From: an uncultured Bdellovibrionales bacterium
GTDB taxonomy: Bacteria; Patescibacteriota; Minisyncoccia; Moranbacterales; DUUL01
Length of the DNA stretch: 64,000 nt
Assembly: GCA_964556685.1 (NCBI GenBank)
Contig: CAZKWX010000001.1
Coordinates: 95,854-159,853 of the forward strand
Direction: 5' to 3'
Every line of letters begins with the position of its first letter. The stretch's first letter is position 1. The position numbers were made by a program, and so were the translations under genes. Below the pieces are notes generated by a model. That model was given only the letters and a program-made list of their open reading frames with translations, had not been told where the DNA came from and did not search any database. Positions 2,802 to 56,077 of this stretch are shown in pieces.

Positions 2802-3605
2802 TCACCATTTCCAACCTTTTGGTTGACCTAAACGCAGAGATTCCGCGTTAAGTGTGAATTCTCTTTCAAACACTCTTCTCTCGATTTTAAGCTTTGTCCG
2901 CCCCTCTTTTGAGAGGATCACTATAACACCCGGACGCCAAAATTCTCCGACTTCCAGACTGTCATTTTCTAGTGTTTTTAGCCATTTACCCTTGTCACTG
3001 TAATAGTCAATTCCTTTGACAACGAGCATGCCTCTTCTTTCTAATAATCGAAAAATGCGCGTGGCATAATCACCGTCTCTTGACTTCTTAGGCGAAACAA
3101 CGATATTCATTTTTTTAGTCCCACTGAATGAATAATTAAAATGGTCAATTCTTTTTAATTCCCCGAAAAGAAGTGACCAGATATCCGCCTCGGAAGCCTG
3201 TGTGCCTCGGGTCTTCGGCGAAAAACCACTGGGCTTAGGTGCGGGTCTTCTATTTCTCCTGTTGTTAACGAATTCATTTGTTAAGCCAAAAAGGTCACCG
3301 TCTGAATTAGCAAGAAAAAGCGAACCTGGTCTTTTTGCAGGATTCCTAGACCAACCAATGTTGATTTGTGCATTCCCGTCTACATGATTGATCCAGGCTT
3401 CAACTGTGCGAGGTTTTTTTCTACCACCGGTCGAATCTTCCTCGGCTTGAAAAGCCTCAAATTGAACATTGCCAGTGTACCCCTTCCAAGTCCTTTCCAT
3501 TATCGACTTGGCTAACGGATCAGAATCCGTACCAGCCATCACAGAAAATGGATAAAGGATTATGCAAATCGTAACCAGCAATACTACATGATTTTTCAAC
3601 ATCAT
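2802..3605 (-). CDS. LolA-like outer membrane lipoprotein-sorting family protein
   Basis: Signal peptide and a ~250-aa soluble domain. The composition and length are typical of LolA-like proteins that accompany MMPL/RND exporters. The assignment rests on the gene context and the general family look, not on a specific motif. Confidence 0.4.
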   Translation of the reverse strand: MMLKNHVVLLVTICIILYPFSVMAGTDSDPLAKSIMERTWKGYTGNVQFEAFQAEEDSTGGRKKPRTVEAWINHVDGNAQINIGWSRNPAKRPGSLFLANSDGDLFGLTNEFVNNRRNRRPAPKPSGFSPKTRGTQASEADIWSLLFGELKRIDHFNYSFSGTKKMNIVVSPKKSRDGDYATRIFRLLERRGMLVVKGIDYYSDKGKWLKTLENDSLEVGEFWRPGVIVILSKEGRTKLKIERRVFEREFTLNAESLRLGQPKGWKW

Positions 3606-3666: not shown

Positions 3667-6426
3667 TCAGACTTTTATCCCCCGATGATACGTAACAACG
3701 TATCGCATCAACGGAGACACCAGAAGAATGGTTGCCATGAGACAAAGGAAAATTACCATTTCTTCCAGCCTCCCCAACATGGCCACGGGCATTGCTAGTG
3801 AAAAGCAGAGCCCTACAAACATGAGCATGTTGGTGACGCAGTCACCGCAAACATCAACAGCAGCGTTGACCATTTCTTTTTTCCTAATTACTAGGCCAAA
3901 AAGCTGGCTTTTACTGATGATTACCATTGTTTCATCGCTGAGTGCCAAGGTGCAATACCACCCCAGCATCAATAATGGGAAATCCACCGCAATTGTAACT
4001 GCAATTGGTCCGATCGTGGTATTGGCGATATCCATGGGCATACCGAACGCCCACATCGCTAGATACATTCCAGCCTGCGCCACGATAAATGGCACGGCCG
4101 TCACCACTCCTAACATCAAGAATGATACTGTCCAGGCGCTGTCTGACTTTCTAAAATGTCTTTTGAACGCCACGCCCGCCATCAGGATGACTACCAGTTG
4201 AAGTAAGAAGTTGAACAGAAAGCTGTTCTTCATAATTACTCTGTCGGACCCGACCCAGCGAGCTAAACCGCTAGGAAATCTGTTTGGTAAGGAGAAAATT
4301 CTTTCCACCTCATTTTCGATGAACACCATGACATTTCTCATGTCAGGTGTCGGCTGCTCTCCGGTGGAAACTTTGAGTAGGAAGTCACAGCGTGAGTTTT
4401 CTTCCGTTGGGCGCTCCATGCTTCTGCGAGCCAGATACGATTCTCCCCAACGGGCTTTACTGTAGCTCCAGACCTCATTCCAGGTTTGGATCAGTGTCTC
4501 GCGTATGCGGGTGGCGATGTTAAGATCAGTAAGCTCAATTCCCTCATCCAAGAGATCTTCGATCGCCAGCTCTCTTAAAAAGGAACTGACAACCCGACCT
4601 TCTTCGTAGCCAAAGTCCTGCAGACGTAGAACAAAATCGTCAACGGGAGAGTAGGCTCGAACTACCAGCCTATCTCGCTCAAGGCTATTTCTAAGGTCAA
4701 CGAGCTTGTCGATAACCAACGGATCGCCCAAGTCGATCTTTTCAAGCGTGGGCGTGAAAATATTCGATCCAGGTCGTCCTTCTTTGGCCAGCTCCTGATG
4801 GAGTTTGGCCTGTTGATTATCGGACAGGTAGGGCTCTGGATCATTTTGCTTACCAAGAAAAAACGTTGGCAAGACAAAATAGAAAATCAACGAAACTGCT
4901 GCGATTGACCAACAAACTTTGGTACTATGTCGCCACAGTACCCATCGACTGAAAATCCAGCTGATGGTTCTATTCAAAAAGTTGTTGACCGTTCGTGACC
5001 ACCGTGACAACTTGCCTTGAGATTGCTCAATTTTCTCGTTAGCTCCGCCAATTAAATAATATAGAATCGGCAGAAAGTTACGACACAGCCAGTAGGAAAT
5101 GATTATGGCTGAAATTGCCACTATGCTAACTTGAAAAATTGATTGAGAGCCTTTCAGATGACGGATATTCAACGCGACTGCAAAATCCGCGATGGAAATT
5201 GCAAACACCACTGTCACCATCCAGAGTTTAGATTTGACACTTTCCCATCGTTGCCAGTATTCGCCGGTACTACGACCGAGCTCTTTGGCGTGATGAAAGT
5301 TGAATGAGACACTAGACGCCAACGCAACAATAAACGCTACGCTGGTGTAGACATCTTCATTCGAGTGCCAAATGTAATCATTAGCCAGCCACAGAATTGC
5401 CTGACTAATTGGATCGTCACCGGTTATGGACTGATTAGCCCATTGAATAAAATCACTTAATGCGCCAATTGTTCCACGTGCAAACGCGAAACAACAGAGA
5501 ATGTTTAACCAGACTGCAAATGCTTGACGCCAAGATCCCAACAGAACTGTCAGAAAAAATGGAGCCAGACAAAGCATTATCGTACACATGAGGTAAGCAA
5601 ATAATGCGCAAACCGCTGTGACGATGTAACGTCCTCTCGACCAGCTGTACATTCCGTTGAGCTTGTTCTCCTCGTTTAGGGGGAAGCCTAAGTCGGCTTT
5701 AACCGTAATAACCTCCCCGGAATCAAGCTCTAACACGAAATTATTAAATGATGAATGCAGCTCATACCGAGGTTTGAGGTTTAATTCAAACCAAGTCCAC
5801 AAATTTTTTAGATCGAAACTAAAAACCAGTTCTCGCAAACTCCAGTTAAGGTCATAATCCTCTTCGCCCATAAAAAACAGGCTCAAGTATTGATTAAAAA
5901 CCTTTTCGTCCATCTCTTGATCGGGAATGAACAAGATTTGGGTGTAGATATAGTTTTCACTCCTCTCTGTCTTCACTCGACCAAGCAAATCGTCTCTCAA
6001 ACTACGCTTGGCATAGTTTTCTTCAAACCATTTTACCGGGTCGAAGTTTTCGTCCAGCACCATCTTCGAGGTGATAAAGTATCCCCTCGAATCCATTCGC
6101 GTGGCCAACGACGATATATCAACATTGATCCCACGGTCGTGGAAAAAATAGCGTCCCCGCTTAGCCATATTTTCAATAGCTAATAAGTTATCGCGGGTCA
6201 CTTTTCTCATGGGGATATACTTGGGCACAGCACAATCGCTGTATTCAATCTTAGATATTTCCTTTAGATATCTTTCGTCCTGCGCATAGCGGCTATCGCC
6301 ACGCAGCGCATATTTGACCATGGAAATCACATCCACGGCCCAATTTCCTTCCCAGCCTAAAACATAAAACATAGCCAGAAATATCGTTACCGTACTCGTG
6401 ATCTTCCATTTCAATTTCATTTTCAA
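3667..6426 (-). CDS. RND/MMPL-superfamily exporter (12-TM, two large periplasmic loops)
   Basis: The 919-aa protein has an N-terminal TM, a large soluble loop and a block of 5 TM helices. A second loop and a second TM block follow. This is the classic RND/MMPL topology. Confidence 0.6.
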   Translation of the reverse strand: MKMKLKWKITSTVTIFLAMFYVLGWEGNWAVDVISMVKYALRGDSRYAQDERYLKEISKIEYSDCAVPKYIPMRKVTRDNLLAIENMAKRGRYFFHDRGINVDISSLATRMDSRGYFITSKMVLDENFDPVKWFEENYAKRSLRDDLLGRVKTERSENYIYTQILFIPDQEMDEKVFNQYLSLFFMGEEDYDLNWSLRELVFSFDLKNLWTWFELNLKPRYELHSSFNNFVLELDSGEVITVKADLGFPLNEENKLNGMYSWSRGRYIVTAVCALFAYLMCTIMLCLAPFFLTVLLGSWRQAFAVWLNILCCFAFARGTIGALSDFIQWANQSITGDDPISQAILWLANDYIWHSNEDVYTSVAFIVALASSVSFNFHHAKELGRSTGEYWQRWESVKSKLWMVTVVFAISIADFAVALNIRHLKGSQSIFQVSIVAISAIIISYWLCRNFLPILYYLIGGANEKIEQSQGKLSRWSRTVNNFLNRTISWIFSRWVLWRHSTKVCWSIAAVSLIFYFVLPTFFLGKQNDPEPYLSDNQQAKLHQELAKEGRPGSNIFTPTLEKIDLGDPLVIDKLVDLRNSLERDRLVVRAYSPVDDFVLRLQDFGYEEGRVVSSFLRELAIEDLLDEGIELTDLNIATRIRETLIQTWNEVWSYSKARWGESYLARRSMERPTEENSRCDFLLKVSTGEQPTPDMRNVMVFIENEVERIFSLPNRFPSGLARWVGSDRVIMKNSFLFNFLLQLVVILMAGVAFKRHFRKSDSAWTVSFLMLGVVTAVPFIVAQAGMYLAMWAFGMPMDIANTTIGPIAVTIAVDFPLLMLGWYCTLALSDETMVIISKSQLFGLVIRKKEMVNAAVDVCGDCVTNMLMFVGLCFSLAMPVAMLGRLEEMVIFLCLMATILLVSPLMRYVVTYHRGIKV

Positions 6427-19806: not shown

Positions 19807-22572
19807 TTAAGCTTTCTGAGGAGACCCCTCAATTGCAACTGCTGATTTTTGTTTTTTCCGTTTAACTAATAAGTGAACTAGCAATATTGCCAGCAATGTG
19901 ATCGGGAACCAGAGCATGGCATCACAACGATAGATCCACCACAAGACCAAACCACCAATCGTGAAAGCTGCCGGCACAACATACTTCCTCATGCCACCCA
20001 ATTCTAGCTCTTTATTGTTCCAGCGAAACAGCGACCAGTTGACCGCCAAGCCATATGAAACCAAAGCTGCAATCCAAATCCAAAGCGGCAACGCGGCACA
20101 AGCCTTGGCATCTGAAACCCCCAGCACCGGTGCTGCTTGAGCAGCCGGAACCAATTCAAAAGGAGGTTCACCTTCTTCAGCTCCGACATAATATCCTTCA
20201 TTCACCACTTGCATGGCCAGGATTGCTTTTCCACTTCTAACTTCATCATCCATCGGATCATCGCCCTTAGCTTTGGCCACGAACTCATAGATTCCGGCAG
20301 AAGCCGAATTATTAATTAGCAACATATATTCAATCATGTACTCGGCTCCTTCTTCCATGTCACCCAATGGCCAGACATATTTGGCGATTTCCACTCCGGC
20401 ATCATTAAATAATCGATCAGAAAGCTTCACATCATAAATCGTGCTATCTCCATCGTTTTCAACATAAATCACGTGATAGACAATTTGACCGTTCACCACT
20501 GGAGCAGAAATGGTTTTCTCTCTCTTCACTTTCAAGCTCGAATCAGGACCCAAATAACTCTCAACCTCATATCCATATTCATACTCGTTATATTCACCTT
20601 CATAATTGTAATAAAGTTTTGTCTCATCTGAATCTGAGTTATTACCCTTTTCCTTTTCTTCAGTTTCAGTGACAATCTCAACTTCAGCGAAAAGAATTTC
20701 TGGCCCGTTTTCAGATTTGACAATAACTTTCATTTCTCCTGCTTGTCCACTGGGCACACTGCCCAAATCCCAAGTATGCGATTTTTTTCCACCCATTTCT
20801 CCACCATTAAGCGACATTGCTAAAGATACATTTTCCGCATCGGCTTTTCCATTGTTTCTAAATTTAACTGTATATTCATTCTGCTCGCCGGCTTCTAGCT
20901 CCTCTTTTCCATCATCAATTTCGACTTCCAATTCCGGATAGGCGAACTCCAGATCTCCTGTCCATTCACCCATAACATTAACCACCCCAAAGAGCCAGTT
21001 GCTGCCAACGATGTTAGTGTTGACCAGGTTGAAAATGTTAGAAAAGGCGCCAGCGTTACCAGTGTTAATTGCCACATCTCCTCCATTTTGATTAGCTTGA
21101 TTTTCGCCAGTGTTTGCATTGGCCTGAGCTGTGTTCGTAATATTTGCTAGGTTGTAGTTTTTAACTGTTAATTTTGCATCCCCTTGCCCTTCTTCGTCGG
21201 CTAAGAAAACATACCCCAGTTCGTCACCTTCATCGCCAAACCAATTTAAGATTTTTCCCCACCAGTTGCCATTTTCGTTGATAGTTAAAGAAAACCAATT
21301 GCTGCCAACAATGTTGGTGTTGGCTTGCGTTTCAACTTGGCTTTGAGCAAAGGCATCGCCAGTTTCAATTTCGACATCGCCATCATTCCCGTTGGCTTCA
21401 TTGTCGCCAGAGTTGGCACTGGCCCCCGCATCATTTTCAATGTCAGCTTGATTTACATTTTCAATTTCAACTGATGAATATTCATTGTTGAAAAATGGGA
21501 AAGACAGCAAGCCTTCTCCCGGAACAATTAAATCTCCTGACCAGTGACCGAAAACGTTGATCACAACAAAGACCCAATTGTCACCCACAATGTTGGTGTT
21601 GACTATATTAACTACATTGACCACTGCTTGAGCATTGCCAGTGTTGATTTCCACATCCCCTTCGTTCTCATTAGCTTCATTTCTTCCTGAGTTAGCATTA
21701 GCCTCTGCATCATTTTCAATGTCAGCTTGATTTTTGTTTTCAATGACTAATTCATCTGGACCTCCATCTTCTTCTTCATTATTTTCCTCTTCATCCATCA
21801 ACCCAATTAGTTTAAGAATGATCTCTAGCAAATTTATATCCTCTTCACTATAACCATAAATATTTTCAACTAAATCTTCCCAGTTCTCACCGACAATATT
21901 TGTGTTAACTTCATTATAGATATTAGCTTCGGCTTGGGCATCTCCAGTTTCGATAATCACTTCATCGTTGTTCTCTTCGTCCCCTTCTTCGCCATTCTCC
22001 TCCTGATTTTCCTCTTCCTCTTCGTTTGATGTTTCCTCCTCTTCGGTTTCCTCGATTGCTGCTGCTTCCTCATTTAGTTCGACTTCTTCCCCTTCTTCAT
22101 TTAACTCCGCTGTTTCTTCTTCATTTTCTTCCTTGGGCGGACATTTTTTCTTTCCTTCATTATTTTCATCTCCTTCTCCTTCTTCATTGTTCTCTTCTTC
22201 GTGAACTTCACATTCATCTTCCTCTTCGTCGACTGATTCTTCTCCGTTATTATTAGCTTCATTGTCACCAGTGTTAGCATCAGACGTTGCTTCATTATCA
22301 ACATCGGCATCATTTTCATTTTCAATCTCCACTTTGGTTTCTTTTTCGTTGTTTCCTTCTTCTTCGTTATTCTCTTCTTGTTCTTCCTCTCCCTCTTCTT
22401 CCAACACTTCTTCTGTTTCTTCTATTACTTCCTCGGTTTCTTCCAGAGGCTCCTCTGCTAATGCTTGTGACACCGCTAACGGCATGGCGGCTTGAAGCAC
22501 GACCAAATTCATGGTTAGCACACCAACCATAAATGTTTTTAGTACTTTTCTCTTTTTGATCTTCAACAACAT
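19807..22572 (-). CDS. large acidic tandem-repeat surface protein (signal peptide, DUF11/CARDB-like module, C-terminal TM anchor)
   Basis: Signal peptide, a poly-E/N acidic region, and at least four copies of an ~55-aa motif (ENxNxADIENDAxAxANSGxNEANxNxGDVEIxTGxAxA...NTNIVGxNW). The C-terminus has two TM helices. Confidence 0.6.
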   Translation of the reverse strand: MLLKIKKRKVLKTFMVGVLTMNLVVLQAAMPLAVSQALAEEPLEETEEVIEETEEVLEEEGEEEQEENNEEEGNNEKETKVEIENENDADVDNEATSDANTGDNEANNNGEESVDEEEDECEVHEEENNEEGEGDENNEGKKKCPPKEENEEETAELNEEGEEVELNEEAAAIEETEEEETSNEEEEENQEENGEEGDEENNDEVIIETGDAQAEANIYNEVNTNIVGENWEDLVENIYGYSEEDINLLEIILKLIGLMDEEENNEEEDGGPDELVIENKNQADIENDAEANANSGRNEANENEGDVEINTGNAQAVVNVVNIVNTNIVGDNWVFVVINVFGHWSGDLIVPGEGLLSFPFFNNEYSSVEIENVNQADIENDAGASANSGDNEANGNDGDVEIETGDAFAQSQVETQANTNIVGSNWFSLTINENGNWWGKILNWFGDEGDELGYVFLADEEGQGDAKLTVKNYNLANITNTAQANANTGENQANQNGGDVAINTGNAGAFSNIFNLVNTNIVGSNWLFGVVNVMGEWTGDLEFAYPELEVEIDDGKEELEAGEQNEYTVKFRNNGKADAENVSLAMSLNGGEMGGKKSHTWDLGSVPSGQAGEMKVIVKSENGPEILFAEVEIVTETEEKEKGNNSDSDETKLYYNYEGEYNEYEYGYEVESYLGPDSSLKVKREKTISAPVVNGQIVYHVIYVENDGDSTIYDVKLSDRLFNDAGVEIAKYVWPLGDMEEGAEYMIEYMLLINNSASAGIYEFVAKAKGDDPMDDEVRSGKAILAMQVVNEGYYVGAEEGEPPFELVPAAQAAPVLGVSDAKACAALPLWIWIAALVSYGLAVNWSLFRWNNKELELGGMRKYVVPAAFTIGGLVLWWIYRCDAMLWFPITLLAILLVHLLVKRKKQKSAVAIEGSPQKA

Positions 22573-22771
22573 GTCTATGTATATTTAGAAATAATTTTGT
22601 AACCCTTGAATCGAGTCCTGATTTTCTTAAGACCTACTACTTACAACCAGACATACAACCAACGCCCTTCTTACCTACTGCCTTCCAATAAAGTCCACGG
22701 CTGAGGGGAAAAGTTTACCACCGCTTTCCCCCTCGAGCTGAGAACTCTATCGCTTATAAGCGATCACGTAA

Positions 22772-23287
22772 CTATCGGATCCTGGTTACGTTGCTGTTCA
22801 CCAATACTGTAGCTTCTGCCCAAGAGTCAGCATCGCCAGTATAGATTTCTACTGCTCCACCTCGACCTCCACAACGACCACACCGTCCTCTTCTGCTTCC
22901 ATTGTCATTAGCATCGTTCTTGCCAGTGTCTGATTCAGCGCTAACATCATTGTCAACGTCAGCGTCGTTTCCATTGCCTACCCACACTCGACTGTGCCGA
23001 CCGCTAATCATAGTTCGGTTTTCGTTAGCGGTTGTGTCAGCGTAAGCATCAGATATAGCATCGCCGGTATCAATCATAACTCTTCTGGCTCGGTTTCGAT
23101 TAGCATCGTTCTTACCAGTGTCTGATTCAGCGCTAACATCATTGTCAACGTCAGCGTCGTTCCAGTTTTCTACTGAAACGCTAGACCCACGATGATGATG
23201 GCGTCCTGCGAAAGCTGGAGCAACTACGAATGCAAATACTATAGCCGCTACAGGAATAATTGCTAAATACTTTTTCATTTTGTTCAC
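22772..23287 (-). CDS. secreted paralog carrying the same repeat motif
   Basis: Signal peptide plus two copies of NDADVDNDVSAESDTGKNDAN...TGDA. Also His-rich and Gly/Arg/Cys-rich segments. Confidence 0.55.
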   Translation of the reverse strand: MNKMKKYLAIIPVAAIVFAFVVAPAFAGRHHHRGSSVSVENWNDADVDNDVSAESDTGKNDANRNRARRVMIDTGDAISDAYADTTANENRTMISGRHSRVWVGNGNDADVDNDVSAESDTGKNDANDNGSRRGRCGRCGGRGGAVEIYTGDADSWAEATVLVNSNVTRIR

Positions 23288-24048
23288 CTTCCTTTCTAGT
23301 TTTAAGATTTATTTTACTTTCTGTTTATTTCATGCATCGCAAACAAAAACTGCCCCTTGGTTCAACTTTTTTTCAAGTAAACCAAAAGGCAGTCCCTGTT
23401 GTTCGAAATCACAAAAATTTTTCTTGAGTCAGAACGCTCAGAACAAATCATTGTTATCTCCTCTAATTCTTATCAATCCCTCCGCCCCTCCAAACCCTCC
23501 AAATCTCAAAAGCGAACTAACCTCCTATTATCTTTCTTACATAAGCCCTAACTGCGTTCTTTCATTATGATATATAATAATTTCTTAAAATGCAAACTAT
23601 TCTTGCTTCTTCGAATACCTCATGTAGGAAACGCACATGTGCGTTTCCTACGCTGACATCTGTCTGCGTCTTCATGATCCGATAATTTTTTAAAAGTTTC
23701 TTTTTATAACAACACAACTAACTCTTCATTGTCAATTATCGGATATACTGAAAAGTCTTTATTTAAAGTAAACTATTAAAGCTAAAATCTTTTACTCTTT
23801 TCCGGGTTTTTATAACGTTTTCAATGTTTTTCAATGTTTAAATTTTCAATTCGAGTTTTTTATAAACAAAAACCATATAAAAAAACAGGCATGTCAATGC
23901 CCATCTATTTTTTCTCCCCCTGCCCACCTGCCTTCCGTAGCTTTCCTGGCCTTCATAGTTTTAGCGAAGTGGACAGCGAAGGAAGGAGGGGGAGATACAG
24001 AGGGGGTGGGAGCTTTTCCCCATCGCCCCTTTGACCTCAGTGCTCTTG

Positions 24049-30145: not shown

Positions 30146-32191
30146 TCACAATTCCCGAACCTCTTCAACTTGCACTTTCTTGTCATTAGTTGGCACCATA
30201 CTCATCCAAGAAGGCACAAAAATAATTTCCGCTCGATCAAGTCCTTCATAGTTGATGAGGAATTGTTTGATTTTTTCTTCGCCATTGCCAACTACGCCAC
30301 TTTTCACATTCGCCAAATCAATCGTTGGCCAAGCCACCGTCCGGGCTTCGACATAGATGGTCAAACTGTTTTCATTGAAATCGGCTATTCCCTTTTTATA
30401 ACCAACTTGAGTTTTTAAATCCAATTCATAGCCGCTGCCAATTTCCTTTTCCAATTCAGCCACCACCACTTGGTCCACTTCTTCCTTGGAAAAAGCAATG
30501 GCTTTTATTTTCTGCTCCACTGAATAGGCGAACTTATTCGTCGTTGCACCTTCTTTGTGCGAACTTTGAGCTTTCTCAATGCTCATTTCAGCTGAATCAA
30601 TGATAATTTTCTTGCCTTCACCCAACTGCTGACCGATCTCTTGATCGAGAGAATTTTCCAATTCTTCCAGCGTTTTCTTTCTGGCGTTTTCAATGTCTCC
30701 AGCTGTGACCATAGAGACTTTTTTGCTCGCATCAGCCGTTCCTCCGCCAATCATAGCCTTAACGGACTTCGCCTCAAACTTCTCATATTTGAGATTGCCC
30801 TTAAAGCCTTCGATGGTGAAAGTGGACACGCCAATATTGAAATCCTCTCCCGGTTTATCAGCGATCACACTGACTGTCACTGCTCCCGCTTTGTCTCCAC
30901 TCATACCGGGCACTGTCACGCCTTCAGTCAGTCGAAACAGTTTTCCTTCCTTGGAAAGCACTCGGGTGGTGGCTACCAATGGCTGAGAAGCAGCCGAGTA
31001 GTTGTTATAGATAGTCACCTGACCTTTGGCCTTGCCATCATCACCTCCATAGGTTTCACCCGTTGCATCAAACTCAACTTCTTTTTTGATCACAACCTCT
31101 ACTGATTTACCAGCGACCACGGCATTTCCAATATCCAATTGCCCTGAACCCTTAGCCATCACCTTGATCTCTTTAGCCACTTCTTTTTTCACTGGATAAA
31201 CTTTCACCAGCACCTTAGGATAGTTGGAATAAATCCAAAAGGAAAAGAATGCCAGAATCAAAATAATTGACAGAACAACGATCGTCTTTTTCTTCTTTGA
31301 ATGAGTCTGCGTTTTTTCTTCGTCAGTTCGATAGTCTATTTTTTCTTTGTGCGGCTTTGAAGGTTCTTGTGGTCTTTGAGAGACTGGATCACTTGAGAAG
31401 AATTGTTCCGCTTTTTGATGGGTATCTTTTTCTTTTTTCTGCCTCATTTGGTGAGGAGGTGGTGGTGGACCCTGTGGTGGTCGACCTGGCATTAGAGCAC
31501 CTGGTCCTGGTGCAGGACCGGCTGGCTTAGTTGCTCGGCTTGCTGCCGCTGCAGGTATTCCGACTGCTACTGCTGGTTTAGCATTCATCCTTCGCGCAGT
31601 TTCATAACCTTTCACTGGCACATTGGTTGGTTGTGGAGCTGGTCGATTATATAAATCTTTTTTTAGTTGCTCTTGATGTAGCATATCAGTGGGCTGGCTT
31701 TTGCCAACTGCTCCTGCAGTCGCTGCTGCTCCGACTCTTACAGCTGCACCTGTCTTTTTTTCTTCTGGTGTTTCCTCATCAAAAAAGCTGCTTGAGCCAA
31801 CCGCTTTTTGCGGTTCCTGCATTTTCTGAGCTTGGTCCATCTCTTTCATTGCTTCTTCACTAGCTTGGTCGGCCACAGCTTGCTCTGTTTGAGCTTGAGC
31901 AACCGCACCTCCAGCTACCGCTTTTTGATCTCGAGCCTCTTCGGAAAGCGCGCCCACTCTGATTCCCACTCTTTCAATCACTTTCTTGGCATGGGGATCA
32001 TTGGTGTTGATTATAATAGTTTTGCCCATGTCCTCAACCTCTTTTTTGAGGATTTTTAAGTTGATCACACCATGAGTCAAGGCTGCATCCTTCGGAATTA
32101 CCAAGAAAATATCAGTTGCTTCTTCTGATCGAATTCGATCAATGATGCTGGTTATTTCTTCGTCAACATCGATGTATACAGTTCTGTGCAT
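30146..32191 (-). CDS. bitopic membrane protein immediately upstream of ftsA (possible divergent FtsQ/DivIB-position protein)
   Basis: An ~90-aa N-terminal cytoplasmic domain, a Pro/Gly/Gln-rich linker, one TM helix and an ~330-aa extracytoplasmic domain. It occupies the ftsQ position. Confidence 0.45.
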   Translation of the reverse strand: MHRTVYIDVDEEITSIIDRIRSEEATDIFLVIPKDAALTHGVINLKILKKEVEDMGKTIIINTNDPHAKKVIERVGIRVGALSEEARDQKAVAGGAVAQAQTEQAVADQASEEAMKEMDQAQKMQEPQKAVGSSSFFDEETPEEKKTGAAVRVGAAATAGAVGKSQPTDMLHQEQLKKDLYNRPAPQPTNVPVKGYETARRMNAKPAVAVGIPAAAASRATKPAGPAPGPGALMPGRPPQGPPPPPHQMRQKKEKDTHQKAEQFFSSDPVSQRPQEPSKPHKEKIDYRTDEEKTQTHSKKKKTIVVLSIILILAFFSFWIYSNYPKVLVKVYPVKKEVAKEIKVMAKGSGQLDIGNAVVAGKSVEVVIKKEVEFDATGETYGGDDGKAKGQVTIYNNYSAASQPLVATTRVLSKEGKLFRLTEGVTVPGMSGDKAGAVTVSVIADKPGEDFNIGVSTFTIEGFKGNLKYEKFEAKSVKAMIGGGTADASKKVSMVTAGDIENARKKTLEELENSLDQEIGQQLGEGKKIIIDSAEMSIEKAQSSHKEGATTNKFAYSVEQKIKAIAFSKEEVDQVVVAELEKEIGSGYELDLKTQVGYKKGIADFNENSLTIYVEARTVAWPTIDLANVKSGVVGNGEEKIKQFLINYEGLDRAEIIFVPSWMSMVPTNDKKVQVEEVREL

Positions 32192-37388: not shown

Positions 37389-40300
37389 TTAAGTTACAAT
37401 GTTAACTAGCCGTCCTTTCACATAAATCACTTTCTTTGGTTTCTTTCTTCCTAAGTGTCTTTGTACTTTTTCGCTTCCCAAAGCAATCTTCTCTGCTTCT
37501 TTCTCTGAAATATCTTTTGAAACCATCACTTTATCACGCACTTTGCCATTGACCTGAATCACCAATTCAATTTCATCTTCAATTACTTTCTTGGGATCAA
37601 ACTTGGGCCATCTTTGTTCAAAGATTGAAGTATGCTTCTGGGCTTTCTTATTTTCCCCCTTTAGCAAAGGGGGTGTCCCGGCCTTGCCGGGACGGAGGAT
37701 TTGAAGTTCAGCCCAAAATTCTTCCGCTATATGAGGTGCCATTGGGGCTATAACCAATGCTAACGTCTCTTTTACCTTTTTAGCTTGAACTTTGTTAAAA
37801 TCATCTTTGTGATCCCGCATCCAGTTGACATATTCCATAATCCTCGCCACTGCTGTGTTGAAAGAAAGTTTTTCAATATCTTCTCCAACAACTTTGATTG
37901 TTTTGTCAATCATAGACATGTTCAATGGCTTTGTCTTGTTTTGTAGATGACGCAGATCTGCGTCATCTACAGACTTTGTATCGTCTGCTCCTACCTCATG
38001 AAAAACTTTCCACATTCGATTGAGGAACTTGTGCATTCCTTCAATGCCACTGTCTCGCCAGTCACCACCTTGGGCAAAGTCTCCTACAAATCGAAGATAG
38101 AGCCGTACAGTGTCAGCACCATACTTTTTGATCGCATCATCGGGGTTAACCACATTGCCTTTCGATTTGCTCATCTTAGTCCCGTCTTTGGTAATCAAAC
38201 CATGTCCAAAAAATCTCTTGTAAGGCTCGTCAAAATCAATGTAACCCAAGTCTTTCAAAACCATGGTCATGAAACGAGAATAAAGAAGATGTAAGACTGT
38301 GTGCTCCTTGCCACCAATGTAACTGTCCACCGGCAGCCATTTCTTGGTTCGCTTTCTGTCAAAAATCACCTCATTAAATTCAGTCGATGGATAGCGGAAA
38401 AAATACCAAGCGCTGTCGAGGAACGGATCCGAGACATCGGTTTCTCGCTCGGCGTCTCCTTCACAAACTGGGCATTTAACTTTGACAAACTTTTCATTTT
38501 TGGCCAAAGGCCCCTTGCCTTTCCCTTCCGGCAAAAAATCTTCCATCGGTGGTAATTTCACCGGAAGATCTTCCTCGGGAACCGAGACTGCCACTGGCTC
38601 AATACTCTCTTGGATTTTCTCTAGCAATTCTGGAAACTTCTTATTCTTTGGATTATCATCTACACAAAAATGCTTCCTGCCTTTAAGTTTTATTAATTTT
38701 GCACCCAACTTATTGCTAATCATCTCTGCACTTTCAACTCGATGAGTTTTGTCATTTGAGATAAAAATGGTCAGACTCTCAATCTGGTTTTTCAAACTCG
38801 AGTCAATTTTAAAATCAACAAAGCCTTTTATTCGCTCTTCTCTCTTAACTAATTTTTTAGATGGAGCATTTAAAATAACATTTCTAGCTTTTCTCCCTGT
38901 TTCTGATAGCCATTTTAATATAAAAGCTCCTCCGGCACTTGTTCCAACTAAAATTGTATCTTCATCAACATCAAAATTATCAATAGTTTCTTTCCAGTCT
39001 TCATAGTCCGGCTTCCAGTCTGTCGGCATAATTGGATTTATAACTTCAAATCCGTTCTTTTTCAGCTCTTTTTCAAGCCAGCTATGCCAATGTCGAACAT
39101 TCGGTTCAACATAATCTTTGTCGTGAGCTTTCGTCCGACCTGAAGAACCATGGATCATTAAAACTTTAATCCTTTTCAGCCCCTCCTTTTTCCTCCCCTT
39201 ACTAAGGGGAGGATTTAGGTGGGGTCCAAGCGCACAGCGCTTGCACCAGACAATCGGAATCGGCGGCCCCCAATATCTTTGCCGTGAAATGCACCAGTCA
39301 CGTAATTTGTAATTAACCGTCCATTTTCCATTTCCCTTTTCGACAGAAAAATCACCAATTGCTTTTCGAGCTTTCTTGGTTGGCATATCATCGAATTTCC
39401 CAGCATTCATCATCAGTCCCTCATTAACATAAGCCTTTTTCATTTTCTTTGGATCAAGCTTCTTTTCTCCCTTGGGATAAATCACGGGCACCAAATCTAG
39501 CTTATATTTTTTGGCAAACTCAAAATCTCTTTGATCGTGAGTGGGAGTGCACTTTACAATTCCCGTGCCATATTCATAGACAGCGAAATTAGCAGTATAA
39601 ATTGGCATTTCCCGGCCATTGAGATGATTGATCGCATACCGACCTGTAAAAAATCCTTCTTTCTTCTTTTCGACGTTGGCTGGGTCTTTGACTTTTTCTT
39701 CAATCACCTTCCGGCAGAAATCTTTGGCTCCTTTTTCATATTTTGTGCCTTGGACTAATTCATCAACAACAGGATGTTCTGGAGCAACAACCATAAAAGT
39801 AGCTCCCCAAGTGGTGTGTGGCCAGGTGGTAAAAGTTTTCAATTTTAATTTTATATCTTTGACTTTCCATTCTTCTTCCAAACCTTTACTTTTTCCAATC
39901 CAATTCCTCTGATTGGTTTTCACATCATCCGGCCAGTCGATCCAATCTAAATTCTTTAATAGCTGATCGGCATATTTAGTAATAGCAAAAAACCATTGCT
40001 TTAATTCTTTTTTCTCAACAACGCTGTCGCAGCGTTCGCACTTTCCTGCAATCACCTGTTCATCAGACAAAACTGTTTTACATGAAGGACACCAGTTCAC
40101 CTTGGCTTCTTTTTGATAGGCTAGTCCCTTCTTGAACATCTGCAGAAAAATCCATTGAGTCCACTTATAATAATTCGGTTTGTAAGTCTCCACTGTCCGC
40201 GACCAATCATACATGTTTCCGATTTCATGCAATTGCCGATAGAAATTTTTCTCACTCCTTTTAGAAACATCGCTAATGTGTTCGCCAATTTTCATGGCAT

Positions 40301-40583
40301 AGTTCTCACTGTGAATGCCAAATCCATCCAAACCAATCGGCTCAAAAACGTCATAGCCTTCTAACTTCTTGAAACGCCCATAGACATCGGCTCCGGTGAA
40401 GGCATACATGTTCCCCACATGCAATCCTTCTGCGGAGGGATAGGGGAACATCATCAGATTGTGAAATGGCTTCTTGGCTTTGTCCAAATCGGGTCGAAAA
40501 ACACCTGAGTCTTTCCAGGATTTTTGCCATTTTTTTTCGATAGATTTGAAATTATATTTCGGAATTGGTTGCTTTTTTGTCAT
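37389..40583 (-). CDS. leuS: leucine--tRNA ligase with inserted alpha/beta-hydrolase domain
   Basis: HIGH-type motif (GLHVGNMYAF), KMSKSKGN, and the CP1/editing and anticodon domains. It is 1064 aa, longer than typical bacterial LeuRS. About 210 extra residues sit between ...VWCKRC and VSVPEEDLPVKLP. Confidence 0.9.
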   Translation of the reverse strand: MTKKQPIPKYNFKSIEKKWQKSWKDSGVFRPDLDKAKKPFHNLMMFPYPSAEGLHVGNMYAFTGADVYGRFKKLEGYDVFEPIGLDGFGIHSENYAMKIGEHISDVSKRSEKNFYRQLHEIGNMYDWSRTVETYKPNYYKWTQWIFLQMFKKGLAYQKEAKVNWCPSCKTVLSDEQVIAGKCERCDSVVEKKELKQWFFAITKYADQLLKNLDWIDWPDDVKTNQRNWIGKSKGLEEEWKVKDIKLKLKTFTTWPHTTWGATFMVVAPEHPVVDELVQGTKYEKGAKDFCRKVIEEKVKDPANVEKKKEGFFTGRYAINHLNGREMPIYTANFAVYEYGTGIVKCTPTHDQRDFEFAKKYKLDLVPVIYPKGEKKLDPKKMKKAYVNEGLMMNAGKFDDMPTKKARKAIGDFSVEKGNGKWTVNYKLRDWCISRQRYWGPPIPIVWCKRCALGPHLNPPLSKGRKKEGLKRIKVLMIHGSSGRTKAHDKDYVEPNVRHWHSWLEKELKKNGFEVINPIMPTDWKPDYEDWKETIDNFDVDEDTILVGTSAGGAFILKWLSETGRKARNVILNAPSKKLVKREERIKGFVDFKIDSSLKNQIESLTIFISNDKTHRVESAEMISNKLGAKLIKLKGRKHFCVDDNPKNKKFPELLEKIQESIEPVAVSVPEEDLPVKLPPMEDFLPEGKGKGPLAKNEKFVKVKCPVCEGDAERETDVSDPFLDSAWYFFRYPSTEFNEVIFDRKRTKKWLPVDSYIGGKEHTVLHLLYSRFMTMVLKDLGYIDFDEPYKRFFGHGLITKDGTKMSKSKGNVVNPDDAIKKYGADTVRLYLRFVGDFAQGGDWRDSGIEGMHKFLNRMWKVFHEVGADDTKSVDDADLRHLQNKTKPLNMSMIDKTIKVVGEDIEKLSFNTAVARIMEYVNWMRDHKDDFNKVQAKKVKETLALVIAPMAPHIAEEFWAELQILRPGKAGTPPLLKGENKKAQKHTSIFEQRWPKFDPKKVIEDEIELVIQVNGKVRDKVMVSKDISEKEAEKIALGSEKVQRHLGRKKPKKVIYVKGRLVNIVT

Positions 40584-48557: not shown

Positions 48558-49307
48558 CTACACATCAAACAACTCACTCAACTCCATCACCTTGATCCCG
48601 CCATTGTTCCTCTTCAAATGCATATAGCACATAGGACAGCTGGTGATCAAGACATCCGCTCCAGTCATTTTGGCTTGCCCAATTCGGTCCTTGGCAATCT
48701 TGTTGGAAAGTTCGGGATCATTGGAACTCACTCCGCCACCACCGCCACAACAAAAACTCTTCTCGCCATGCAAATCCAGCTCGACTAATTGATAGCCTGC
48801 TTTTTTGATAATTTCCCTTGGTTGATCATAGATGCCCAAATGTCTCCCGAGGTGACAAGGATCATGATAGGTAGCGGCAACCTTTTCTCCCCCTGCCCGA
48901 GGGGGAGATTCAGAGGGGGTGGGAGTTTTTAACTTAGTTTTTGCCTTGTCAATTATTTCCGCCACATGTCTTGCTTCGATTCTCCATTCATCTCCAAGAA
49001 TCTTCGGATATTCTTTTTTGAACATCAATGTGCAAGCCGGACAATTGCTGATCACTCTGGTGACATTGTGTTGCCTGAAAATTTTGAAGTTTTCCTTGGC
49101 CAATCGTTCATATTCTTCAATTGCTCCCGCATTTTTCACCGGTGAACCACAACAAAATTCTTTGTCTTTGAGCAACAAAAAATCAACTCCCTCGGCCTCC
49201 AGGATTTTCCGATAACGCTCCAGCATCCCTTCTCCAGCAAATTTTGTCAGACAGCCGGGATAATAGAGCGTGTTTCCGCTTTTAAAAATGTTATCTAAAA
49301 AGCTCAT
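48558..49307 (-). CDS. LutA-like (Fe-S) oxidoreductase with two CCG cysteine-rich domains
   Basis: CCGSPV...NCPAC and HDPCH...CCGGGGG...CPMC motifs. Confidence 0.65.
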   Translation of the reverse strand: MSFLDNIFKSGNTLYYPGCLTKFAGEGMLERYRKILEAEGVDFLLLKDKEFCCGSPVKNAGAIEEYERLAKENFKIFRQHNVTRVISNCPACTLMFKKEYPKILGDEWRIEARHVAEIIDKAKTKLKTPTPSESPPRAGGEKVAATYHDPCHLGRHLGIYDQPREIIKKAGYQLVELDLHGEKSFCCGGGGGVSSNDPELSNKIAKDRIGQAKMTGADVLITSCPMCYMHLKRNNGGIKVMELSELFDV

Positions 49308-49394
49308 TGTGCTTCTAGTATAGTACCCGAAATCTCATTTAACAAGTTTCAATAAAAAAGTTACAATTAAAACAAGTAGTAGTGTTGCGAGACA

Positions 49395-50918
49395 ATGCAG
49401 AAACTCAACCAATATAAAATCTATCTATTTTATCTCTTCCTTTTCCTCATTCCGTTCAATTTGCGGATAATTTTTAATTTCGATCGAATCAACAATCTCG
49501 AAGGTTTTCGCGAACACATCACACACTCTTTCTACGCATTCGATTTGATTTTTATTCTGTTATTGCTAGTTGTTCTGCTTGATTGGCTGCAGAATAAACG
49601 ACCAAAGACTTCAACATCAAAAAAGATTTTCACTAACCCCCTTTTCTATTTCGTTATAACGACCGTTATAACGTCGGTTTTGGCCCTCAACCAGACAGTG
49701 GCTTTCCAACAAACTTTGAGGATCGCACAAGCAGTCGTTTTCTTTTTGATAGCTAATAGCATTCTTTCAAGTTCCCCCTCTTGGGGCAAAAGTGGAGAAT
49801 TGCGAATGAGTAATTCTCGGGGAGTTAAGAAACCCGGATGGGATTCAAAACCATTTTATATTTCAATCTTAATAATTTTTCTTAGTGGAACTCTCCAATC
49901 ACTTATTGCTCTTTGCCAGTTCATTTTTCAAAAATCAGTCGGACTGAAAATTCTGGGGGAAAGCGTCATTGCACCAGAAATTTTGGGCGTGGCTAAATTT
50001 GAAATCCTGGGAGAAAAACTGATCCGCGCTTATGGCACTTTTCCTCATCCCAATCTTTTAGCTGCGTTTTTGTTACTGTCGTTGGCCTGTGGAGCTTTCT
50101 TGTTGATTTATAAAAAATCTTCTCCCTTTTACAAGAAAAAATATAAATATGTCAGCGATCTGCTTTCCAAAAATTATTTCTATACAATTGGAACTGTAAT
50201 GATTTTATTCGGTGTCTGCCTGACCTATTCTCGCAGTGTAATCTTGGCTACTGTCGTTTTTATTATTTTATTGTGGATTGGACATCGCAAAAAAGTAGGC
50301 GATGTCTATCGAGGCTGGTGCAAACAACTGCGTATTCATTCTATTTTCCAAACAGCCTTAGCAGTGTTGGCAATTTTTGCAGTTACTTTTTTACTTTATA
50401 ATATTTTTGCTCCCCGTCTTTGTTTTTCTAATTGTTTTAATGACAATTCCATTGAACTGCGAGGAAGATATAGCGCTGCCGCAGCAGAAATTATTGTTCA
50501 AAATCCACTCACCGGAGTGGGACCAGGAAATTTTGTCATTGCCCTAGCTGATTCTTCTGTCGGTGCAACGCTTCAACCTTGGGAATTTCAGCCAGTTCAT
50601 AATTTGTATCTGCTCATTGCTTCAGAAATCGGTCTCGTCGGCCTGGTATTTCTCCTAATCTTTGTTTCCACTCTCATATATGCATATATGAGAGTAAAGT
50701 TGGGGCGCACTTTGAATCTGCAATCATTGGTTGGAAATCCTTTTTTTATTTTACTTTTGGCTTTCCTTTTTCTGGGATTAATTGATCATTATTTCTGGAC
50801 TCTTCCTCAAGGACTACTCATCTTTTGGCTTAGCCTTGCGTTTTTTGATATGTCCAGTAAGATAAAAGTTGAACCCAAACAGAGGAGGTCACATGCCCTA
50901 CGTACCGAAATATACTAG
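49395..50918 (+). CDS. O-antigen ligase/polymerase-like integral membrane protein
   Basis: About 12 TM helices with a periplasmic-loop YSRSVILAT motif typical of the Wzy_C/O-antigen ligase family. Confidence 0.5.
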   Translation: MQKLNQYKIYLFYLFLFLIPFNLRIIFNFDRINNLEGFREHITHSFYAFDLIFILLLLVVLLDWLQNKRPKTSTSKKIFTNPLFYFVITTVITSVLALNQTVAFQQTLRIAQAVVFFLIANSILSSSPSWGKSGELRMSNSRGVKKPGWDSKPFYISILIIFLSGTLQSLIALCQFIFQKSVGLKILGESVIAPEILGVAKFEILGEKLIRAYGTFPHPNLLAAFLLLSLACGAFLLIYKKSSPFYKKKYKYVSDLLSKNYFYTIGTVMILFGVCLTYSRSVILATVVFIILLWIGHRKKVGDVYRGWCKQLRIHSIFQTALAVLAIFAVTFLLYNIFAPRLCFSNCFNDNSIELRGRYSAAAAEIIVQNPLTGVGPGNFVIALADSSVGATLQPWEFQPVHNLYLLIASEIGLVGLVFLLIFVSTLIYAYMRVKLGRTLNLQSLVGNPFFILLLAFLFLGLIDHYFWTLPQGLLIFWLSLAFFDMSSKIKVEPKQRRSHALRTEIY

Positions 50919-51186
50919 CAACAGAAGAAAAAGGAGTATTCGAGAACATGCGTTATTGAATCATGTCTGGGGCGCAATAGAGGAGATCATACTACTGCTT
51001 CGCGATATAGATTCACGTTTAGTTGCCGAGATGTTAGAGGCTCACGCCCTAGAGGCCTTACACGAAGAACTTGGGCAGTGGAAGAAGCTGGACGAGGATC
51101 TAAAAAAAAGAATTATAAAAAGTGCTGAGGAAAAAATTATCAAGGGTCTTAAGAAAACAAGAGGAGAAAAAGAAAGTAAACCATGA
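50893..51186 (+). CDS. small hypothetical protein
   Basis: A GAGGAGGT SD lies 5 nt upstream of the internal ATG (MPYVPKY...). Confidence 0.4.
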   Translation: MPYVPKYTSNRRKRSIREHALLNHVWGAIEEIILLLRDIDSRLVAEMLEAHALEALHEELGQWKKLDEDLKKRIIKSAEEKIIKGLKKTRGEKESKP

Positions 51187-51219
51187 CTCAGAGGCAAACA
51201 CTTCTGGGTCAAAAAATAT

Positions 51220-53952: not shown

Positions 53953-54418
53953 TCTTTTGAAATCTTCAGCGTTATTTTTTGTCGGGGGAACCATCGCGGC
54001 TGTTTTGACTCTGGCCATTTCGGCTGTTTTTTATTCTCCACAGCAGTCAGAAACATTCATTTCGATTTTGGGACTAGTTTTGATTGAAGAGATTTTGAAA
54101 CTGATCATCTTGTGGTTTTTGATAGATTGGAGTAACATCGAGCAAGACCCGCGCTGGCAAAATTTTTTCATTTTGCCAGTTTTGTTTGGAGTTGGTTTTG
54201 GACTATTCGAAGTGTTTCTTATTTCCCTCAACCACAACCCCATCGTTCTCGCTGCTCTTGCCCCCTTCGTGATTCATGTTATCACTAGTATTTTACTCAT
54301 GATTGGTTTATTTTTTTTCAAGAAAACCGAATCTTTTGTTGTTCCTTCGCTTCTTTTTGTTCTGGCAATCACCATTCACGTTTTCTATAATCTGGTGATT
54401 ATTTCAGTCACAAGATGA
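53933..54418 (+). CDS. integral membrane protein, possibly PrsW/CPBP-like intramembrane protease
   Basis: EEILK and FEVF motifs inside TM helices. Confidence 0.35.
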   Translation: MMDSQPSLLKSSALFFVGGTIAAVLTLAISAVFYSPQQSETFISILGLVLIEEILKLIILWFLIDWSNIEQDPRWQNFFILPVLFGVGFGLFEVFLISLNHNPIVLAALAPFVIHVITSILLMIGLFFFKKTESFVVPSLLFVLAITIHVFYNLVIISVTR

Positions 54419-54497
54419 TTCCCCTTGTCAGGAAGTCTATTGGTTGTTATAATTCAATCGAAATTTTTTATAGTAAATTTTAATTCACATAACCCCC

Positions 54498-55088
54498 ATG
54501 GCTAAAGAAAAAAAATCATTCTTTGAAAAACTCACCGGCATTAAGAAGGTTGAGGAGGGTGAGCCGGAAGAATTTGTGGGAGATCAGCCGCTTGAACAAT
54601 CAGCTGAAGATAATTACTTTGCTCAAATGGAAACACAAAATCAAGATTATGAAATTCCCGGGGCATCTCAGCAACAATCAGCCGCTCCAGCGGAAGGTTA
54701 TCAGGCACCAGTGCAACCAGCAGAGCAAGCTGTTTCGATGGATCAACAGATTGAAGCAGAAGGCCAGCTCACCATTGATGTCTACCAAAGCGATGATGAT
54801 GTAGTTATTAAATCAACCATTGCCGGGGTCAAGCCCGAAGATTTGGATGTGAACATCAACAATGACATGGTAACCATTCGCGGTGAAAGAAAACAAGAAG
54901 AAGAGATTGATCCAGAAAATTATTACTATCAAGAATGTTATTGGGGTCCATTTTCACGCAGTGTCATTCTGCCAGTCGAAATTATTGCTGATAAAGCTGA
55001 AGCAACAATGAAAAATGGGATTTTGACTTTGCGACTTCCCAAGGCTGACACTACTAAGACTCGAAAGATTCAAGTTAGAGGGTATTAG
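54498..55088 (+). CDS. Hsp20/alpha-crystallin family small heat shock protein
   Basis: ACD core (QLTIDVYQSDDDVVIKSTIAGVKPEDLDVNINNDMVTIRGER...GILTLRLPK). Confidence 0.8.
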   Translation: MAKEKKSFFEKLTGIKKVEEGEPEEFVGDQPLEQSAEDNYFAQMETQNQDYEIPGASQQQSAAPAEGYQAPVQPAEQAVSMDQQIEAEGQLTIDVYQSDDDVVIKSTIAGVKPEDLDVNINNDMVTIRGERKQEEEIDPENYYYQECYWGPFSRSVILPVEIIADKAEATMKNGILTLRLPKADTTKTRKIQVRGY

Positions 55089-55152
55089 TGAATTGATGAT
55101 TTTAGATTTCAGATTTATAATTGAGTCTTAGGATTATTAGACTTTTGAAATA

Positions 55153-55734: not shown

Positions 55735-56077
55735 ATACTTCGGATACACGTGAATGTTGAGATTCTGAAACAAAAAAGCTGTGAAGTAGTTTTCTAAAGT
55801 CTTTTATATTTTTTAGAGATCTTCCAATTTTTTGGAAGGTTTTTTGATGTCCAATCATAAATCTAAAATCATAAATCTAAAATTTGAAACCTCCTTGCCC
55901 TTTTAGATGTAAAAATATATGCTTGGGGTGTATAGTTATTAGGGAAATAGGCTTACAGCAGTAGGTCTGGTTGTTGGGTATAAGTTATAAGTCAGTCAAT
56001 ATAAACATAGGACCTATGTCCTACAACCAAACATACTGCTTACACCTTATGTTCCCTACTACTACCAATAAAAAAAC

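Follow-up and report, generated by a model that had tools for sequence, protein, structure and literature searches.

Two neighbouring genes for repeat proteins

A 64,000-nt stretch of DNA from an uncultured bacterium of the Patescibacteriota (GTDB order Moranbacterales), hereafter the window, to whose positions all coordinates refer unless another locus is named, carries two adjacent minus-strand genes that we call A and B. Gene A encodes a repeat protein with an export signal, an immunoglobulin-like (Ig) module and a membrane anchor, and gene B encodes a small secreted paralogue made of the same repeat. This repeat is a new domain family inside a known functional class, and we are moderately inclined to read the two proteins as parts of one surface module. 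The E-values for units in the list below come from a hidden Markov model (HMM) built from the four units of A itself, so that its values on the long units of A (1e-37 to 1e-38) are circular.

22772-23287, minus strand: gene B, 171 aa
23204-23287, minus strand: signal peptide of B (MKKYLAIIPVAAIVFAFVVAPAFA followed by G; hydrophobic segment at residues 4-29; cleavage site read from the sequence)
22997-23182, minus strand: unit 1 of B, short form, residues 36-97 (unit HMM E 3.1e-13)
22781-22990, minus strand: unit 2 of B, short form, residues 100-169 (unit HMM E 1.9e-9)
19807-22572, minus strand: gene A, 921 aa
22456-22572, minus strand: signal peptide region of A, residues 1-39 (...AVSQALA/EEP; hydrophobic segment 10-35; cleavage site read from the sequence)
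22240-22335, minus strand: first strand of unit 1 of A, residues 80-111 (KVEIENENDADVDNEATSDANTGDNEANNNGE; unit HMM positions 1-33, E 4.8e-11)
21964-22248, minus strand: poly-Glu/Asn insert of A, residues 109-203 (Asp/Glu 50/95), in the unit 1 loop that connects strands 1 and 2
21841-21969, minus strand: second half of unit 1 of A, residues 202-244 (VIIETGDAQAEANIYNEVNTNIVGENW...; HMM envelope 163-244, model positions 14-69, E 8.5e-19)
21532-21753, minus strand: unit 2 of A, long form, residues 274-347 (unit HMM E 2.2e-38; strands in the AlphaFold2 (AF2) model with predicted local distance difference test (pLDDT) values of 86-94)
21253-21474, minus strand: unit 3 of A, long form, residues 367-440 (E 5.7e-37; AF2 strand pattern as in unit 2)
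20953-21174, minus strand: unit 4 of A, long form, residues 467-540 (E 4.4e-37; AF2 strand pattern as in unit 2)
20626-20931, minus strand: Ig-like stalk module 1 of A, DUF11 (= CLIPPER)/CARDB, residues 548-649
20236-20535, minus strand: probable second Ig-like module of A, residues about 680-779, below threshold
19858-20103, minus strand: C-terminal membrane anchor of A (hydrophobic segments 824-844, about 863-882 (weaker) and 880-905 by Kyte-Doolittle; basic tail KRKKQK)
19716-19691 and 19589-19553, minus strand: two terminator-like hairpins 3' of gene A, the second with a 16-bp stem

Gene B lies upstream of gene A on the minus strand, across a gap of about 200 bp, and not downstream of it, as the initial annotation (made from the sequence alone) had stated. 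The open reading frame (ORF) list and the public gene calls differ slightly: the latter give 921 aa (P0189) or 907 aa (P0043) for gene A, and 168 aa for gene B, with an ATG at 23278, three codons after the GTG start; P0029 is 100% identical to this product. Terminator-like sites were looked for in the B-A intergenic stretch and none was found, and the terminator annotated after the larger gene is represented by the two hairpins that follow it. Genes A and B probably form a two-gene co-transcribed unit.

The paralogy of A and B is real, because the HMM made from A units detects both units of B (E 3e-13 and 2e-9), as the initial annotation had proposed for two secreted repeat proteins. Its count of four tandem copies in A stood as well, while its tandem period of about 55 aa did not: the period is 93-100 aa, being the sum of a core of about 55 aa, an extension of about 20 aa (IVGxNWxFxVINVFGxWxGD) and a linker. 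The conserved blocks occur four times each, NTNIVG(E/D/S)NW at residues 223, 325, 418 and 518 and TG(D/N)A at residues 209, 311, 404 and 504. At the DNA level, unit copies are 62-79% identical within A and 86% within B. Recent duplication of DNA as the source of the repeat was rejected, as the copies in A share only 62-79% identity.

The N-terminus of A looks like a signal peptide of the Sec type, with a basic stretch, a hydrophobic stretch and then ALA/EEP. It leads into a strongly acidic region, as annotated initially: Asp and Glu make up 84 of the 166 residues between positions 40 and 205, and the whole ectodomain holds 205 Asp/Glu vs 35 Lys/Arg. Unit 1 is interrupted by the poly-Glu insert of about 95 aa, located in the loop that joins its two long strands, and acidic inserts are found at the equivalent loop in the A orthologues of three other loci (L036, L034 and L120). 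In the second half of this unit, recognisable unit sequence starts from about residue 202, though the HMM envelope opens at 163. Downstream of the units, residues 548-649 passed both Pfam cut-offs, with 38.3-39.5 bits for PF01345 (DUF11/CLIPPER; cut-off 24.6) and 27.1 bits for PF07705 (CARDB; cut-off 22.7), in keeping with the module annotated there; at residues about 680-779, both DUF7507/CLIPPER_2 (E 4.4e-4) and DUF11 (E 9.6e-4) stayed below their cut-offs. Searched with phmmer against PDB sequences, residues 545-790 returned 2kut only, at E 0.24, and gave no usable alignment to 9IFR; neither full-length A nor its Ig region had a significant match among PDB sequences.

The C-terminal anchor foreseen in the initial annotation is present, and its first helix, LPLWIWxAxLxxYxLxINWxLF, is kept in P0004, P0103, P0119 and the A-like proteins of L034 and L036. 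Its two membrane passes are a different matter, since the basic C-terminal tail suggests three. An LPXTG motif was looked for in A and is absent, despite the membrane helices and the basic tail. A as a sortase substrate was rejected, as LPXTG is absent from A and sortase is absent from the window.

Protein B could be aligned over its full length with seven orthologues of 168-184 aa, in which its AFA/G cleavage site is conserved. Its two repeat copies and its His-rich and Gly/Arg/Cys-rich segments were all recovered as first described. The His/Arg-rich segment RHHHRGSS stands just before unit 1, the loop of which is basic (RNRARR), and the inter-strand loop of unit 2 holds an Arg/Gly/Cys insert (SRRGRCGRCGGRGG). 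NSNVTRIR forms the C-terminus, and the motif NSN(V/I)T is invariant among the orthologues, where His clusters (HHH, HHHH), CxxC-like pairs and His-/Arg-rich loops also recur. Compared with reference genomes and metagenomes, the alignment of B found only distant four-unit relatives, 28-48% identical.

No existing family accommodates the repeat, which agrees with the first impression that it is not a described domain; the profile search named in the initial annotation as its own refutation test was run, and no family was mapped. With Pfam-A (2025) and NCBIfam r20, only the DUF11-type module of A reached threshold, and B had no significant match. Scans of 20 relatives (10 per library in the main scans) yielded no family for the repeat, and CLIPPER is the most that appears in the gene tables of orthologous loci, where newer Pfam names are in use. 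The Beta_helix, Pectate_lyase, HemolysinCabind and SLH profiles gave no match at E<=1 for A and B and none at E<=0.01 for 10 relatives. A profile of 40 units had no match at E<=10 among PDB sequences, a set that includes FapC entries. In the literature on surface repeats of the candidate phyla radiation (CPR), functional amyloid, sortase/LPXTG and S-layer/OP11, we found no description of the repeat family.

The same 40-unit profile was searched against 1.84 billion representative proteins (50%-identity clustering level), where it matched 3,488 at E<=1e-3 and 674 at E<=1e-30. The matches fall into two size classes, of about 410-510 aa and about 720-1,080 aa. Where homologues or loci carry an organism name, they belong mostly to Patescibacteria, chiefly to Microgenomates (Woese-, Levy-, Ames-, Chisholm-, Curtiss- and Daviesbacteria).

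Fold of the repeat unit

Aligned over 1,300 non-redundant units, the consensus shows a strict odd/even alternation over about 19 residues. The conserved odd positions of strand 1 are V3, Q5, N7 (97%), A9 (84%), I/V11, N13 (92%), V15, V17 and A19, and the strand ends in T21-G22 (G22 100%), with N24 conserved at 99%. An equivalent pattern marks strand 2: I36, T38-G39 (G39 100%), D40-A41, A/V43, A/V45, V47, N49, A51, N52 (98%) and N54. Even positions are variable and mostly D, N, E or T.

The AF2 model of A residues 268-548 (pLDDT 80.3, predicted template modelling score (pTM) 0.75) is all-beta, with identical strand boundaries across three units and linkers of 20-30 residues between them, for which pLDDT falls below 50. 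Covariation, analysed by mean-field direct-coupling analysis (1,298 units, effective number of sequences 1,088), provides evidence that is independent of AlphaFold. Its top couplings are anti-diagonal (5-54, 9-51, 13-47, 13-49, 15-47, 17-43, 19-41/43 and 21-39). The odd positions of the conserved face have mean z values of 2.65 and 1.68, as against 0.38 and -0.29 for even positions, which are uncoupled despite having a higher entropy than odd ones. Because the couplings are limited to the conserved face, the two strands would pack face to face in different sheets, as a beta-arch, and not as a hydrogen-bonded ribbon. The couplings and the AF2 strand pattern together support such a beta-arch. 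In long-form units, weak couplings 46-60 and 50-66 position a third strand against strand 2, on its outer face.

A Foldseek search of PDB gave a sole match at E<=1e-3, the functional amyloid FapC (9u4u and 9nqd; E 4e-5, probability 0.95). The other matches were weak and mostly represented parallel beta-helices or curli, the CsgA fibrils 8enq and 8c50 included; against viral structures, Foldseek found nothing at E<=1e-3. Taken together, the AF2 model, the type of Foldseek matches and the covariation favour the beta-solenoid-like fold that had been suspected from the regularity of the repeat, and such a fold is probable.

Among known systems, curli CsgA/CsgB share with A and B secretion, imperfect strand-arc-strand repeats with Asn/Gln, Gly and Ala at inward and turn positions, and the pairing of a cell-associated paralogue with a secreted one. 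However, Curlin_rpt (PF07012) has no match at E<=1 in A or B, and hhalign of the unit profile with E. coli CsgA gave a probability of 0.1%. In addition, the curli unit has 19-23 aa, whereas ours has 55-74 aa, the surfaces of the A/B family are strongly acidic, and anchoring relies on membrane helices or sortase, not on the outer-membrane CsgG/F machinery. The Pseudomonas protein FapC has multi-strand layers stacked in a cross-beta solenoid, as A may have, but the unit profile has no PDB sequence match, as mentioned above, and the TM-scores are low (see below); a Pfam scan of the 20 large ORFs of the window matched no Fap-operon family. In their way of working, A and B would resemble known surface repeat proteins and possibly functional amyloids. 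None of the sequence tests run places either of them in the curlin, FapC, parallel beta-helix, RTX or SLH families.

Gene clusters and surroundings of the locus

The order in which a small two-unit secreted protein precedes a large anchored one recurs in five further loci, which represent four distinct gene clusters (L034, L036/L037, L119 and L120/L121). In the large protein of the pair, the first unit is split and three long-form units follow it; CLIPPER and a membrane helix at the C-terminus complete the protein. In L036, the pair directly follows rpsI, as it does in the window. A shares 39% identity with the A-like protein of L034 and 47% with that of L036, and is conserved best in its repeat region (53-56% identity vs 31-50% elsewhere). 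L036 (8598-9182) and L120 (5432-5992) have a third small gene between the B-like and A-like genes, without counterpart in the window; its product has a single degenerate unit and a tail, acidic or amphipathic, before the C-terminus ...IxGIFS/LLSIFS.

Relatives more distant than these make up a larger cluster, with three or four repeat paralogues and a sortase, that is conserved in the Microgenomates-type loci (L001-L033 and L038-L117, e.g. L010 9821-15467). In its full form it includes a protein of about 430 aa whose four short units precede an acidic hydrophobic tail at the C-terminus, FDFxFSFDLSDLLxLL; a protein of about 750 aa that has some five long-form units and is anchored in the membrane by K(I/V)NLAWLL; a protein of about 390 aa with three units and either a (V/I)LP(A/V)TG sorting signal or a non-canonical GLSDTS variant; a sortase (PF04203 at 3.4e-21); and, often, a basic two-unit protein of about 205 aa encoded on the opposite strand. 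The three-unit class ends in (V/I)LP(A/V)TG...YLRLRSGRSP, that is, the signal, a hydrophobic stretch and a basic tail. Among 33 Microgenomates-type genome loci, 31 have the four-unit gene followed by the membrane-anchored long-form gene; the three-unit gene, LPXTG-type or GLSDTS, comes next in 22 of these 31, with a sortase gene directly after it in 21 of the 22. Metagenome loci of sufficient length show the same gene order as genome loci. Several of the records with this cluster and its sortase are titled 'uncultured Gammaproteobacteria bacterium' and are probably mislabelled metagenome-assembled genomes of Patescibacteria (L003, L006-L009, L011, L012, L014, L016, L017, L019, L023, L025, L026, L028 and L029).

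Long-form units account for 258/299 and 19/25 of the units in the membrane-anchored classes, and for 3/364, 7/126 and 0/56 in the other classes. As they are nearly exclusive to anchored proteins, A corresponds to the anchored component of these clusters and B to the short-form secreted components. Relatives of the C-terminal half of A were sought in the Microgenomates clusters, and none was found. A sortase gene lies near the repeat genes in L119 and in most Microgenomates-type loci, and there is none in L034-L037.

Other extracellular proteins recur near the repeat genes, namely LTD (lamin-tail-domain) proteins, CAP/SCP proteins and subtilisin S8 peptidases (L036 12576-16519, L010 4726-5688 and 15501-16475, L118 and L119); L036 additionally has a gene for Peptidase_M73 (TasA/camelysin family) and an S24-like peptidase.

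Within the window, gene B is preceded by an rpoA-rplQ-rplM-rpsI cluster, and gene A is followed by envelope-glycan genes, with two GT4 glycosyltransferases and a DUF4012 protein. The interval of about 760 bp between rpsI and gene B (23288-24048) has no plausible coding-strand ORF and no Rfam match; a terminator-like hairpin follows rpsI there (23906-23883), and some weak sites in it resemble promoters. Rfam and tRNA scans of the window found three tRNAs only, distant from the A/B locus.

Some features further away deserve mention. The leucyl-tRNA synthetase (1,064 aa, 37389-40583, minus strand) has a match to Ser_hydrolase (PF06821, 1.1e-12) at residues 496-643, an unusual insertion between the editing and anticodon-binding parts. 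Four large minus-strand ORFs lack a Pfam match: 3667-6426 (919 aa), 2802-3605 (267 aa), 1526-2791 (421 aa) and 30146-32191 (681 aa). In L036, a 687-aa gene without a Pfam family on record lies between ftsA and infA, the same position as that of the 681-aa ORF of the window; the match is one of position only. The cumulative GC skew declines steadily up to about 50 kb and increases from there (about 49300-56000), and this turn coincides with a switch of gene orientation at 49307/49395, past which the first plus-strand gene encodes a Wzy_C O-antigen-ligase-like protein and not dnaA.

A putative surface module and its alternatives

It seems somewhat probable to us that the two genes encode a surface module, in which A would be a membrane-anchored beta-solenoid head on a stalk and B a secreted paralogue that may dock on it. 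In each unit, two long strands of about 17-20 residues would face each other via a stripe of small, hydrophobic and Asn residues (N-x-A-x-I-x-N-x-V-x-V-x-A-x-TG ... TGDA-x-A-x-V-x-N-x-A-N), connected by Gly-containing arcs, with variable, mostly acidic or polar faces turned outward, and successive units would be stacked into a short beta-solenoid. A would be exported by Sec and retained in the membrane by its C-terminal helices, so placed that four long-form layers, each with a third hydrophobic strand, form a head atop the Ig stalk (DUF11/CLIPPER-CARDB); the poly-Glu loop may protrude from the first of these layers. B, secreted, would contribute two short-form layers with Arg/His-rich loops and dock on, or extend, the open edge of the A solenoid through strand-on-strand stacking; pairing of its basic loops with the acidic surface of A may aid docking. 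The outcome might be a surface fibre, a coat or an adhesive tip. The analyses directly support the export and anchor signals, the Ig module, the beta-arch couplings, the recurrent gene pair and, in relatives, the association with sortase; how units stack, whether A and B associate and what they do for the cell is inferred. The proposal is modelled on known systems in which an anchored paralogue is paired with a secreted one, such as CsgB/CsgA in curli and the long and short chaplins. In the chaplins of Streptomyces, as in the repeat family, anchored long paralogues coexist with short secreted ones.

A surface or adhesin role, already suspected in the initial annotation, is supported by the architecture of A and by its LPXTG/sortase relatives. 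Experiments have characterised DUF11, now renamed CLIPPER, as a CnaA-like stalk domain of fibrillar adhesins that is often stabilised by an isopeptide bond, though the bond is missing from some DUF11 domains (PMC12617251). With such adhesins (PMC12617251; PDB 9IFR) A shares a signal peptide, an N-terminal head, an Ig stalk and a C-terminal anchor. It differs from them in having one or two Ig modules instead of long tandem arrays, an undescribed repeat as the head, and transmembrane helices as the anchor. The relatives of A and B also resemble the sortase-dependent surface protein and pilus clusters of Gram-positive bacteria, being multi-paralogue operons with one LPXTG-type paralogue and usually a sortase next to it. 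However, the repeat proteins are neither CnaA/CnaB pilins nor built of chaplin domains, and A and B have neither LPXTG nor an adjacent sortase.

Several observations weigh against the surface module as we propose it. Contact between A and B is suggested by synteny and charge complementarity only, and the isoelectric points of B orthologues range from 4.3 to 11.2, which means that their overall charge is widely variable. Modelled alone from 7 sequences, B was predicted by AF2 to be disordered (pLDDT 32.5), with no usable model; this result would fit templated folding and a poor prediction equally well, and says nothing either way. The AF2 alignment for A 268-548 held 17 sequences only, and AlphaFold is prone to over-predict solenoids for repeats. 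The TM-scores to FapC are 0.14 and 0.22, so that no known structure superposes globally. Parallel stacking of the units is suggested by the type of Foldseek matches and by covariation, and not by the coordinates of the model. Finally, neither A nor B has an LPXTG signal, and no genuine sortase gene was found in the window by a jackhmmer sortase search and a TLxTC motif scan, the latter giving one spurious match in an opposite-strand ORF within the ribosomal-protein cluster.

In another scenario, unlikely in our opinion but the strongest of the alternatives, A would be a stand-alone fibrillar adhesin whose solenoid head binds a host cell or a surface polymer, and B would have a separate role and not assemble on A. 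Once secreted, B could bind metals or other cations, or it could regulate or inhibit A. In favour of this scenario, CPR bacteria are for the most part episymbionts in need of attachment factors; the episymbiont lifestyle is echoed in the literature (PMC7143001). The head-stalk-anchor layout of A is that of the fibrillar adhesins with CLIPPER domains (PMC12617251), His clusters and CxxC-like pairs recur in the B orthologues, and B alone has no folded AF2 model. Nevertheless, A and B are paralogues that share one kind of unit, and a B-type gene stands immediately upstream of an A-type gene in each of the five further loci. Moreover, the larger clusters all pair one anchored long-form protein with short-form paralogues, which is more typical of co-assembling subunits.

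We regard as rather improbable that A and B form a polyanionic envelope layer, S-layer-like or acting as a cation sponge, that binds Ca, Mg or Fe or nucleates minerals and stabilises the wall of an ultra-small cell. In such a layer, arrays of Asp, Glu and Asn on flat beta-sheets, together with the poly-Glu loops, would be the cation binders. The excess of acidic residues in the A ectodomain and the D/N/E/T-dominated outward positions across 1,300 units speak for it, as do the conservation of the family over Microgenomates-type loci and the neighbouring genes for envelope glycopolymers (two GT4 glycosyltransferases, Wzy_C, LytR_cpsA_psr and DUF4012). S-layers have been predicted for Patescibacteria in a preprint, which does not name the repeat family. 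However, no SLH or other known S-layer anchoring domain was found, nor any Ca-binding repeat family at E<=1, and there is no sign of a two-dimensional lattice; a single stalked and anchored four-layer protein resembles an appendage more than a lattice.

Equally improbable is that the solenoid is a modelling artefact, with the units of about 95 aa being independent beta domains, like beads on a string, and A nothing more than a long spacer or stalk: the shallow AF2 alignment, the low-confidence linkers and TM-scores of at most 0.22 to PDB solenoids would agree with this, but the AF2-independent covariation brings two 17-residue strands into contact via one Ala/Val/Asn face only, which implies that an isolated two-strand domain would be unstable without a partner sheet, stacked ladders typically have Asn and Gly that are invariant at fixed positions, as here, and the pTM of 0.75 implies a defined arrangement between units.

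Returning to the surface module, it is tempting to go one step further and suppose that the family represents a new class of cross-beta, functional-amyloid-like surface polymer specific to Microgenomates/CPR, where the anchored long-form protein (A, or the class of about 750 aa) templates the end-on stacking of secreted short-form ones (B, or the two-, three- and four-unit classes) and, in most lineages, a dedicated sortase fixes one subunit to the wall. We consider this extension doubtful at present. If true, such polymers could be pili-like or envelope structures on ultra-small groundwater bacteria, used for episymbiotic attachment.

CPR/Patescibacteria make up a large and nearly uncultured share of bacterial diversity, with a lifestyle that depends on surface contact and few surface structures tied to genes. 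Approximately 3,500 representative proteins of this lineage-defining family occur in conserved multi-paralogue modules, often coupled to sortase, and yet are unannotated. With the domain defined, several 'hypothetical' genes in each Microgenomates genome would gain an annotation, there would be candidates for a surface fibre, an adhesin or an envelope layer of Microgenomates/CPR, and the known solenoid and functional-amyloid architectures would be joined by a long-strand, strongly acidic beta-solenoid.

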